Of a DNA stretch of 64,000 bases, positions 52,493 through 53,057 are shown piece after piece (positions within the stretch are counted from its first letter, which is position 1; each line of letters opens with the position of its first letter). This DNA comes from an uncultured virus (IMG/VR IMGVR_UViG_3300032093_000107) (lineage: Duplodnaviria > Heunggongvirae > Uroviricota > Caudoviricetes): the IMG/VR virus record IMGVR_UViG_3300032093_000107. One strand, 5' to 3'. Position numbers and translations under genes: made by a program. A model generated the notes under the pieces. The model worked only from the letters and a program-made list of their open reading frames with translations, was not told the DNA's origin and ran no database searches.

Positions 52493-52829
52493 TCCTTATT
52501 CCCCACCATTAGAGCCATAAGGCTCTTTTTTTGTGGCTACCCTTCGGCGTGGGGGGCAGCCATTAGATAAATAGCCACGGACAAAAGGGAAGATACTGGA
52601 GCACCTGCCATGGCAAAGATTGAACAGGACAACATCAGAAGACTAAAACAGGTAAGGGGGTAAGATTTGAGCTTCATGGGGTGGGTAAATAGTATTTCTA
52701 AAATATCAGCCCCTATTTTGGGTTTTCTGATAATCGGTTAAAAGTCCCGTATATTTACTGACACAAAGATTACAAAAGGATGCTATATTAAAGACATCAA
52801 AAATTTTTAACCAAGTTTTATTTTGTTCC

Positions 52830-52922
52830 GATCCACTCTCCACTAATCCCTGTAAGGGATTGAAACTATGTTATGTAGTCTTGAGAGTGCCCCATTTTTT
52901 AATCCCTGTAAGGGAACTTAAA
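52830..52922 (+). CRISPR. Mini-array/CRISPR-like RNA: type I-D-like repeat, 19-nt spacer, degenerate repeat
   Basis: R1 52830-52866 GATCCACTCTCCACTAATCCCTGTAAGGGATTGAAAC; spacer TATGTTATGTAGTCTTGAG; R2 keeps TAATCCCTGTAAGGGA; promoter cassette at 52747 and terminator at 52923-52950. Confidence 0.75.
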
Positions 52923-53057
52923 GCCGCCAATACCCATAAGGCGGTTTTTTGGTATCTAGAGCCAATCCCTAAAAAGTTCCGTATATTTACGGATGACAAT
53001 TAAGGGTAGGCATGAGATATTAAGGATATAGAAACAAACCACAGAGGAAACAACGCC

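Follow-up and report, generated by a model that had tools for sequence, protein, structure and literature searches.

A cyanophage locus predicted to encode a small RNA resembling a host type I-D CRISPR repeat-spacer-repeat unit

We analysed a 64,000-nucleotide stretch of DNA (the window) from an uncultured virus of the Caudoviricetes, IMG/VR record IMGVR_UViG_3300032093_000107, which amounts to the nearly complete genome of a siphovirus-like freshwater cyanophage. It contains an apparently non-coding unit of ~150 nt, situated between a promoter of a family repeated in the phage (52740-52789) and an intrinsic terminator (52920-52950), and holding two repeat-like hairpins, here named R1 and R2. 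An original prediction, made from the sequence alone, had described the unit as a stand-alone RNA mimicking a type I-D CRISPR array with a single 19-nt spacer. Its features are as follows.

52740..52772, plus strand: promoter upstream element (AAAAGT-CCGTATATTTACTGA; the "operator" of the original prediction), an element with 9-10 direct copies across the window
52781..52789, plus strand: extended -10 element TGcTATATT, spaced as in the copy at 52972; the predicted transcription start lies near 52796
52796..52829, plus strand: AU-rich 5′ leader of the predicted RNA, ~34 nt from the putative start
52830..52866, plus strand: R1, a repeat-like unit with its hairpin core at 52844-52859 and the 8-nt tag ATTGAAAC at 52859-52866
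52834..52840, plus strand: 5′ arm (CACTCTC) of a 7-bp closing helix, from the fold of 52833-52892
52867..52885, plus strand: the 19-nt "spacer" as first predicted, which presumes a 37-nt frame for R2
52867..52899, plus strand: the whole stretch from the tag to the R2 hairpin, 33 nt as read from the sequence
52883..52889, plus strand: 3′ arm (GAGAGTG) of the closing helix, pairing with 52834..52840
52900..52915, plus strand: R2, which repeats the 16-nt hairpin core TAATCCCTGTAAGGGA exactly but lacks the ATTGAAAC tag; the core has two exact copies in the window
52920..52950, plus strand: intrinsic terminator with a 9-bp stem, an 11-nt loop and T6 at 52945-52950 (-12.2 kcal/mol, z -3.98)

The promoter module (52740-52803) belongs to the set of 9-10 direct copies in the window (repeat families D4/D7), which were aligned with one another. 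Between the upstream element GTATATTTAC and the ATATTAA of the -10 the distance is exactly 26 nt, as it is in the copy at 52972, and the predicted operator and -10 at their usual spacing are borne out. The -35 position has diverged, and a simple promoter scan gave no call here. Other copies of the module lead into a Shine-Dalgarno sequence and an ATG, whereas the ribosome-binding site and ATG usual for the family are absent from the 52740 copy. The only open reading frames (ORFs) overlapping the unit are three mechanical ones of 42-47 aa, in agreement with the view that it encodes no protein. The terminator proposed earlier is also present, having been missed by a simple scan because of the loop limit of that scan. 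With its own promoter copy and terminator, the locus has the predicted layout of a stand-alone transcription unit, as had been suggested, and the whole predicted RNA folds with -39.2 kcal/mol (z -4.1).

Copies of the promoter module lie at 19798, 27504, 31548, 32273, 50047, 51078, 51465, 52740, 52972 and 59137, all on the plus strand. The module consists of an inverted-repeat-like upstream element of the CCGTATATTTACGG type, then ATGACA and, 17 nt further on, GATATT; a conserved leader follows, in which GAGGA precedes the ATG. It drives small plus-strand genes, apparently an early or middle set under common regulation.

R1 ends in TAATCCCTGTAAGGGATTGAAAC and contains the only occurrence in the window of the motif TAATCCC-N5-GGGATTGAAAC (shuffle mean 0.06, three mismatches allowed). 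Its 3′ 23 nt match exactly, with the loop left free, an abundant cyanobacterial repeat family with 37-nt repeats; the family motif was found in CRISPR arrays at at least 125 loci of the genome collection, every one of them cyanobacterial. R1 folds into an 8-bp hairpin like that of the host repeat L081, with a 3-nt loop and no C:A mismatch. A perfect stem of 7-8 bp with a 3-nt loop is characteristic of the "group 2" repeats discussed below, and the 3′ end GGGATTGAAAC that yields an 8-nt 5′ tag is likewise found in R1 (52856-52866); R2 has neither, its stem being only 5 bp. The best Rfam match to R1 is CRISPR-DR5 (RF01318), aligned over the whole model (1-37) with 52825-52866 read as a 37-nt repeat carrying a 5-nt insertion. 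Stem and 3′ end are conserved in this alignment, but the score is below threshold (28.2 bits against a gathering cut-off of 40, E 0.016), and no Rfam family reaches its gathering threshold anywhere in the 64-kb window.

The likeness is confined to the 3′ 23 nt. Over all 37 nt, including the 5′ 14 nt, the best identity to a host repeat is 29/37 (78%); the 37-nt repeat of the original prediction stands in its position, and only its 3′ part is family-like. Comparison with host I-D repeats, which had been proposed as a check, gave the same divided answer, with a match in the 3′ 23 nt and no host repeat carrying the GTA loop or the 5′ half of R1. An 11-nt 5′ block of R1 is shared by one viral contig alone, L141, in the first repeat of a two-repeat mini-array; the 5′ half of R1 may therefore come from a subfamily of repeats that has not been sampled. 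As had been stated, R1 bears no relation to the repeat of the phage's own CRISPR array of 14 repeats (44354-45345). In IMG/VR the motif was found at 19 loci, 17 of them single by the exact pattern, which represent ~8 distinct element types with this phage as one; this suggests that repeat mimicry is recurrent in cyanophage contigs. Divergent homologues of the locus were sought through the flanking proteins, the exact 23-mer and the 5′-half pattern, and these routes returned only the same phage or chance matches (L175-L177). The loci of the same phage (L001, L145-L148, L150, L154, L178) are 100% identical.

Several observations connect the family with CRISPR type I-D. The I-D signature gene cas10d (TIGR03174) was found in four of the five genomes reached via array loci, and in all four a family array adjoins the I-D operon. 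The array of cyanophage N-1 has a repeat whose 3′ 23 nt equal those of R1 apart from the loop. This N-1 repeat was placed in "group 2" and is cut mainly by the Anabaena I-D Cas6 protein Alr1566, and weakly by the III-D Cas6, according to the available text of Reimann 2020 (bioRxiv 10.1101/2020.04.14.041012). In the same source, group-2 CRISPR RNAs (crRNAs) start in vivo with an 8-nt tag, which agrees with the 8-nt Cas6 handle proposed for R1, while the stem of III-D "group 1" repeats contains a C:A mismatch. The cas10d adjacency, the N-1 likeness with its cleavage data and the lack of a C:A mismatch in R1 together support the "type I-D-like" label given at the outset. Cross-talk of R1 with III-D may occur.

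The second repeat differs markedly from the first. As the original prediction had it, R2 keeps the 16-nt core exactly and lacks the ATTGAAAC end; by eye, ~4 of the 14 positions 5′ of the core equal those in R1. R2 folds as a 5-bp hairpin (-5.5 kcal/mol), and no CRISPR-DR model matched it. A 19-nt spacer exists only if R2 is given a 37-nt frame, and the stretch that can be read from the sequence is 33 nt. What does hold is the abnormal shortness of the unit: the hairpin-to-hairpin period is 56 nt, compared with 65-96 nt (mode 72) in the host arrays fetched, where none of 1,474 consecutive repeat pairs lies at 64 nt or less. The unit thus lacks the normal repeat period, with its spacer of ~33-37 nt, and a processed product would consist of an 8-nt tag, 33 nt and a hairpin, against ~49 nt from tag to hairpin in a host unit. 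The segment 52833-52892 folds with -18.7 kcal/mol (z -3.76; none of 200 shuffles equally good), a value for a single sequence. In this fold the 7-bp helix (CACUCUC/GAGAGUG) encloses the R1 hairpin, the tag and 16 nt.

Both concepts that the original prediction invoked, repeat-like RNA anti-CRISPRs (Racrs) and viral crRNA-like repressors (Cracrs), are in print (PMC10651486; bioRxiv 10.1101/2024.10.29.618823). Racrs are repeat-like RNAs encoded downstream of promoters, which are processed by Cas6f and trap Cas7f (Camara-Wilpert et al. 2023, PMC10651486). In the accessible text of that paper the functional tests cover I-C, I-E, I-F and V-A, with I-D not among them; its supplementary file 3 includes I-D-typed units on IMG/VR contigs. 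The phage unit resembles a Racr in being a viral, intergenic repeat copy just 3′ of a predicted promoter, with no I-D cas genes nearby, and by analogy Cas6 would be expected to bind and cut it, after which backbone subunits would be trapped. It differs in that it is not solitary, having a second hairpin 56 nt on, and in that neither this contig nor TAATCCC..GGGATTGAAAC units were found in supplementary file 3, as far as the available part of that file extends.

The sequence features first described are confirmed, as is the idea of a mimic of host I-D crRNA encoded by the phage. On this evidence we tentatively propose, at a confidence somewhat short of even, that the product of the locus is a small phage RNA, which mimics a host I-D ("group 2") repeat-spacer-repeat unit and acts as an RNA anti-CRISPR by competition. 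Competition or sequestration of the Racr kind is chosen as the minimal mechanism, and guided repression of the Cracr kind is a close rival. The RNA would be made from the phage-family promoter and would end at its own terminator. Host I-D Cas6 would then bind the R1 hairpin and cut before AUUGAAAC, and would also bind, and perhaps cut, the R2 hairpin. One product would be the leader with a hairpin fragment bound by Cas6 and with no 5′ tag; the other would be a short crRNA-like RNA of an 8-nt tag, 33 nt and a 3′ hairpin. Both could occupy Cas6 and Cascade backbone subunits in truncated complexes harmless to the phage, in competition with genuine crRNAs.

The distribution of the locus among related genomes bears on this proposal. 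We compared the window with contigs from four sequencing runs, three from DNA (X12, X17 and X19) and one from an RNA library (X20); being contigs, these give no transcript starts or ends. In the three DNA runs a sister haplotype, ~10% divergent, joins position 52745 to 53424 with 12 other letters between, which identifies the RNA gene, a promoter copy, ORF88 and a terminator as an accessory cassette.

52746..53423, no strand assigned: accessory cassette of 678 bp (RNA gene, next promoter, ORF88, terminator), absent from the sister haplotype, which has 12 nt instead
53058..53324, plus strand: ORF88, encoding an acidic orphan protein of 88 aa and served by a promoter copy of its own (52972-53035); it varies together with the RNA gene

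A 678-bp indel of this kind is as expected for accessory anti-defence genes. In X12 and X19 the contig depth of the sister haplotype exceeds that of the window type. ORF88 contains 17 D/E and 9 K/R residues by our own count; it has no Pfam or PHROG family, no homologue but itself and Atlas scores below 0.9.

The same indel can be turned towards an explanation that involves no CRISPR-directed function, in which a fragment of a host array was acquired through recombination and is now decaying, or the unit is a site for recombination or attachment that happens to resemble a CRISPR repeat, or a structured small RNA of some other kind. The sister haplotype does without the cassette, the 5′ half and loop of R1 differ from all host repeats found, and repeat-like sequences can serve integration into arrays, a role raised in the Discussion of PMC10651486 in its available form. 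Against this explanation stands the state of the unit, which is flanked by a dedicated promoter copy and a terminator, retains the 16-nt core in two exact copies together with an intact 8-nt tag and 8-bp stem, and shows 0 differences across window-type contigs from three runs. Nor was an integrase family found among the 49 window ORFs scanned. We regard such an explanation as improbable.

Other results weigh against a competing repeat mimic, and we collect them here. None of 1,616 host repeat copies has the GTA loop of R1. Among these copies 17 other variants of the loop occur, and since the triplet varies in this way, GTA is plausibly tolerated, a point in favour of the mimic. A pattern combining the 5′ half, stem and tag (up to 3 mismatches) was found in 0 of 401 cyanobacterial genomes, and a looser 5′-half pattern in 2 of the 401, both as single, chance-level sites. 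The exact R1 23-mer was found in the viral and metagenome collections only in this phage. Recognition of R1 by Cas6 is thus an assumption, since no host repeat has the GTA loop or the R1 5′ half. SRUFinder, with its rules of at least 90% identity and coverage and no partial repeat within 100 bp (PMC10651486, available text), would not call the unit a Racr candidate, its 78% identity falling below the 90% filter. ORF88, the neighbour in the cassette, has no recognisable anti-CRISPR (Acr) relative. The contig from X20, labelled metatranscriptome, covers 53051-53322 (272 nt, 0 differences), almost exactly ORF88 and possibly through DNA carry-over; it leaves the RNA gene uncovered, which is no evidence either way on expression. 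Finally, R2 is reduced to the hairpin that the 3′ end of a crRNA requires, and in this the unit resembles a mini-array for making guides more than it does a simple decoy.

This last point leads to guide-dependent hijacking, in which a short crRNA-like RNA would load I-D Cascade and repress a host promoter without cleavage through a partial, PAM-proximal match (PAM, protospacer-adjacent motif); the proposed targets are the cas10d operon, or a toxin or cargo gene guarded by a host I-D mini-array. We consider this unlikely, though a serious competitor. The layout is that of crRNA-like regulators, with R2 retaining what a crRNA 3′ end requires and dropping the tag, and the 56-nt period against 65-96 nt in hosts points the same way. 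Candidate viral crRNA-like repressors are on record for V-A, I-B, I-C, I-E and I-F, the systems they are predicted to target, from Pseudomonadota, Bacillota and Actinomycetota (Liu et al., bioRxiv 10.1101/2024.10.29.618823), and the available text of this preprint does not have I-D or cyanobacteria among the subtypes and taxa described. Cracr RNAs compete with host crRNAs, form smaller complexes and are often encoded beside anti-CRISPR protein genes (same source, in part). The phage unit shares their make-up of degenerate repeat, shortened spacer and degenerate repeat. It departs from them in one defining feature, the sharing of 9 or more PAM-proximal nt with a host regulator or target: the genomes searched, outside which the host may lie, gave no such match.

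Mini-arrays of this general kind also occur in type I-D hosts. In three host I-D loci, repeat-like units (L159, 3863-3948; L161, 4484-4585; L160, 5271-5292) lie on the opposite strand to the cas genes. They begin immediately behind the stop codon of cas3′, upstream of cas10d, and keep the hairpin and tag alone; L159 has a 64-nt spacing, L161 a 79-nt spacing and L160 a single unit. The first ~12 nt after the first tag are alike between two genera. Judged from sequence and position, these units match the I-D mini-arrays described from the interval between cas3 and cas10d, for which repression of cas10d or of the promoters of cargo or toxin-antitoxin genes is predicted (Shmakov 2023, bioRxiv 10.1101/2023.03.03.530964, available text). 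That prediction would favour hijacking, as R1 likewise keeps the hairpin and the ATTGAAAC tag in a non-standard spacing. The host units differ in being chromosomal, within the cas locus and tagged in both copies, where the phage unit is viral, has a 56-nt period and leaves its second copy untagged; and the spacer-like seeds of L159 and L161, compared in register, are unlike the phage spacer.

A guide would need a target, and the original prediction had read the spacer as promoter-like and suggested searching it with a GTN PAM against host cas promoters and other phages. The genomes searched may not include the phage's own host, so the negative results carry little weight. No PAM and seed match was found in four host I-D loci, the best being 10 nt inside cas3′ with a TGG flank. 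The tag with the spacer seed (up to 3 mismatches) was found in 28 of 401 genomes, not above the reversed control, and revealed no host crRNA-like twin. A GTN PAM with a 12-nt seed gave matches in 2 of 151 Nostocaceae-family genomes against 10 matches in the reversed control. Both matches fall within one orthologous coding stretch, whose flanking letters we read as a putative helicase-type motif. The phage genome itself holds no second copy or seed match of the spacer, and hence no self-target. In IMG/VR only this phage was returned, both for the 19-mer and for a 23-mer in which each sixth position was left free, and the 33-mer had no match among 50,697 isolate phage records (E ≤ 10). The idea of a promoter-like spacer with a host target was accordingly not sustained by the searches, which were negative or stayed at control level, and the lack of a spacer target in any of them fits a target-independent decoy.

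In its fullest form the hijacking idea would make this RNA the first I-D, cyanobacterial phage guide to reprogramme host Cascade, silencing the I-D operon or mini-array-guarded toxin or cargo genes, a claim we rate as doubtful. A single transcript could in that case yield a miniature crRNA composed of the tag, a guide of ~16-33 nt and a hairpin supplied by R2 or, via the 7-bp closing helix, by R1 in trans. Given its own Cas12f/TnpB-like CRISPR locus, described below, the phage would then both wield and subvert CRISPR.

A further explanation is that the locus is a weapon between viruses, a one-spacer mini-array that borrows host I-D Cascade against a competing phage, the 33 nt being a spacer of normal length set against a truncated repeat. 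Cyanophages N-1 and YongM and the contigs L141 and L142 do carry host-type arrays of the R1 family, 33 nt is within the implied length range of host spacers, and the divergent sister haplotype co-occurs with the window type in the same runs. The spacer searches tell against a viral target, whether in IMG/VR, among the isolate phages or in the rest of the phage genome. The two defining features of viral mini-arrays, host-identical repeats and a spacer matching a related virus, are both lacking: mini-array repeats are typically identical to those of the host, the repeats here differ from every host repeat found, and R2 is without the 14-nt 5′ part. The Cas-less array of N-1 shares the repeat family, and its repeat is an I-D Cas6 substrate (Reimann 2020, available text), but it comprises 5 full repeats with normal spacing and conservation over 37 nt, compared with one full repeat-like copy and one hairpin-only copy at a 56-nt period in the phage unit. 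We think this explanation very unlikely. The locus falls outside the strict definition of each of the named families, and in how it would work it is closest to the Racr and Cracr families.

Related units are found on other viral contigs. On nine IMG/VR contigs (L127-L131, L133, L135, L137 and L143, "group A") a solitary family repeat, the ATTGAAAC tag and a further 21-50 nt lie inside a perfect 27-bp stem, in which L127 and L130 differ by a compensatory A>G / T>C pair. Enclosure of hairpin, tag and a short stretch in these other cyanophage units suggests that a closing stem may serve more generally to turn a single repeat into a complete crRNA mimic. An unrelated contig, L139 (IMGVR_UViG_3300045999_009121), has the same layout as the locus studied here, with a tagged full repeat, 41 nt and an untagged hairpin-only copy at a 64-nt period, and a 5-bp closing helix is possible. 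Microcystis phage MaMV-CH01 (L153; PP681321, 40016-40849; also H4-H6) carries a two-repeat mini-array with a related I-D-type repeat. In its spacer, 29 of 39 nt are the exact reverse complement of a promoter-like stretch (TTGACA...TATAAT) situated 51 nt before the first repeat, an arrangement predicted to form a long stem or a self-directed guide.

The remainder of the window is that of a tailed phage with a CRISPR locus of its own. A profile scan of 49 ORFs identified a tape-measure protein, a DUF4055 portal and tail-repeat proteins; the portal protein has only distant relatives, in cyanosiphoviruses (Synechococcus siphoviruses), at ~26% identity. No tRNAs were found in the 64-kb window. The phage's own CRISPR components are:

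45414-47111, minus strand: Cas12f/TnpB-like gene, 565 aa, with Pfam Cas12f1-like_TNB and OrfB_IS605
44354-45345: CRISPR array of 14 repeats of ~35 nt and 13 spacers of 35-44 nt, adjoining the Cas12f/TnpB-like gene

None of the 13 spacers matched the sequences compared. Next to this locus lies a gene for a 770-aa DEAD/Helicase_C helicase fused to an N6/N4 DNA methylase domain (47642-49954, minus strand). Spacers of the host arrays L002-L126 gave no convincing match to the window, the best being 22 nt with 1 mismatch at 59276-59297 (E 0.001). A repeat-like match of 21 nt at 43766-43786, without a hairpin, was dismissed as chance. A conserved hairpin, AGCCCCGCAAGGGGC followed by AATTAAACCA and without a T-run, has copies at 27743-27778, 51371-51406 and 51860-51895, each 3′ of small plus-strand genes. 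A 492-nt unit is repeated in ~2.5 tandem copies (window 141-1424) inside the gene for a 637-aa tail-repeat protein (3-1913, minus strand).

Phage DNA is present in 20 runs from 16 studies, labelled as freshwater or fungus metagenomes. One metagenome contig (65,896 bp) is 100% identical to the window over 51344-54366. The "nearest virus record" (G001) was rejected as a separate relative: it is this phage itself, running across the junction of the two ends of the window, with 99.97-100% identity over 1-18095 and 61746-64000, and the RNA locus is outside its cover.

Type I-D is the main DNA-targeting system of filamentous cyanobacteria. Repeat-mimic RNAs are known from other bacteria; for I-D they have so far been catalogue entries only, not tested in cyanobacteria. 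The locus offers a compact construct of ~210 bp (promoter, repeat, 33 nt, hairpin and terminator) for the characterised I-D systems of Anabaena or Synechocystis, with the natural haplotypes that have and lack the cassette serving as controls. Screens by identity, which demand at least 90% and a strictly solitary repeat, miss diverged two-hairpin mimics of this sort. Should the guide version be true, phage RNAs would be tied to the circuits of I-D mini-arrays and toxins that have been predicted for host loci.

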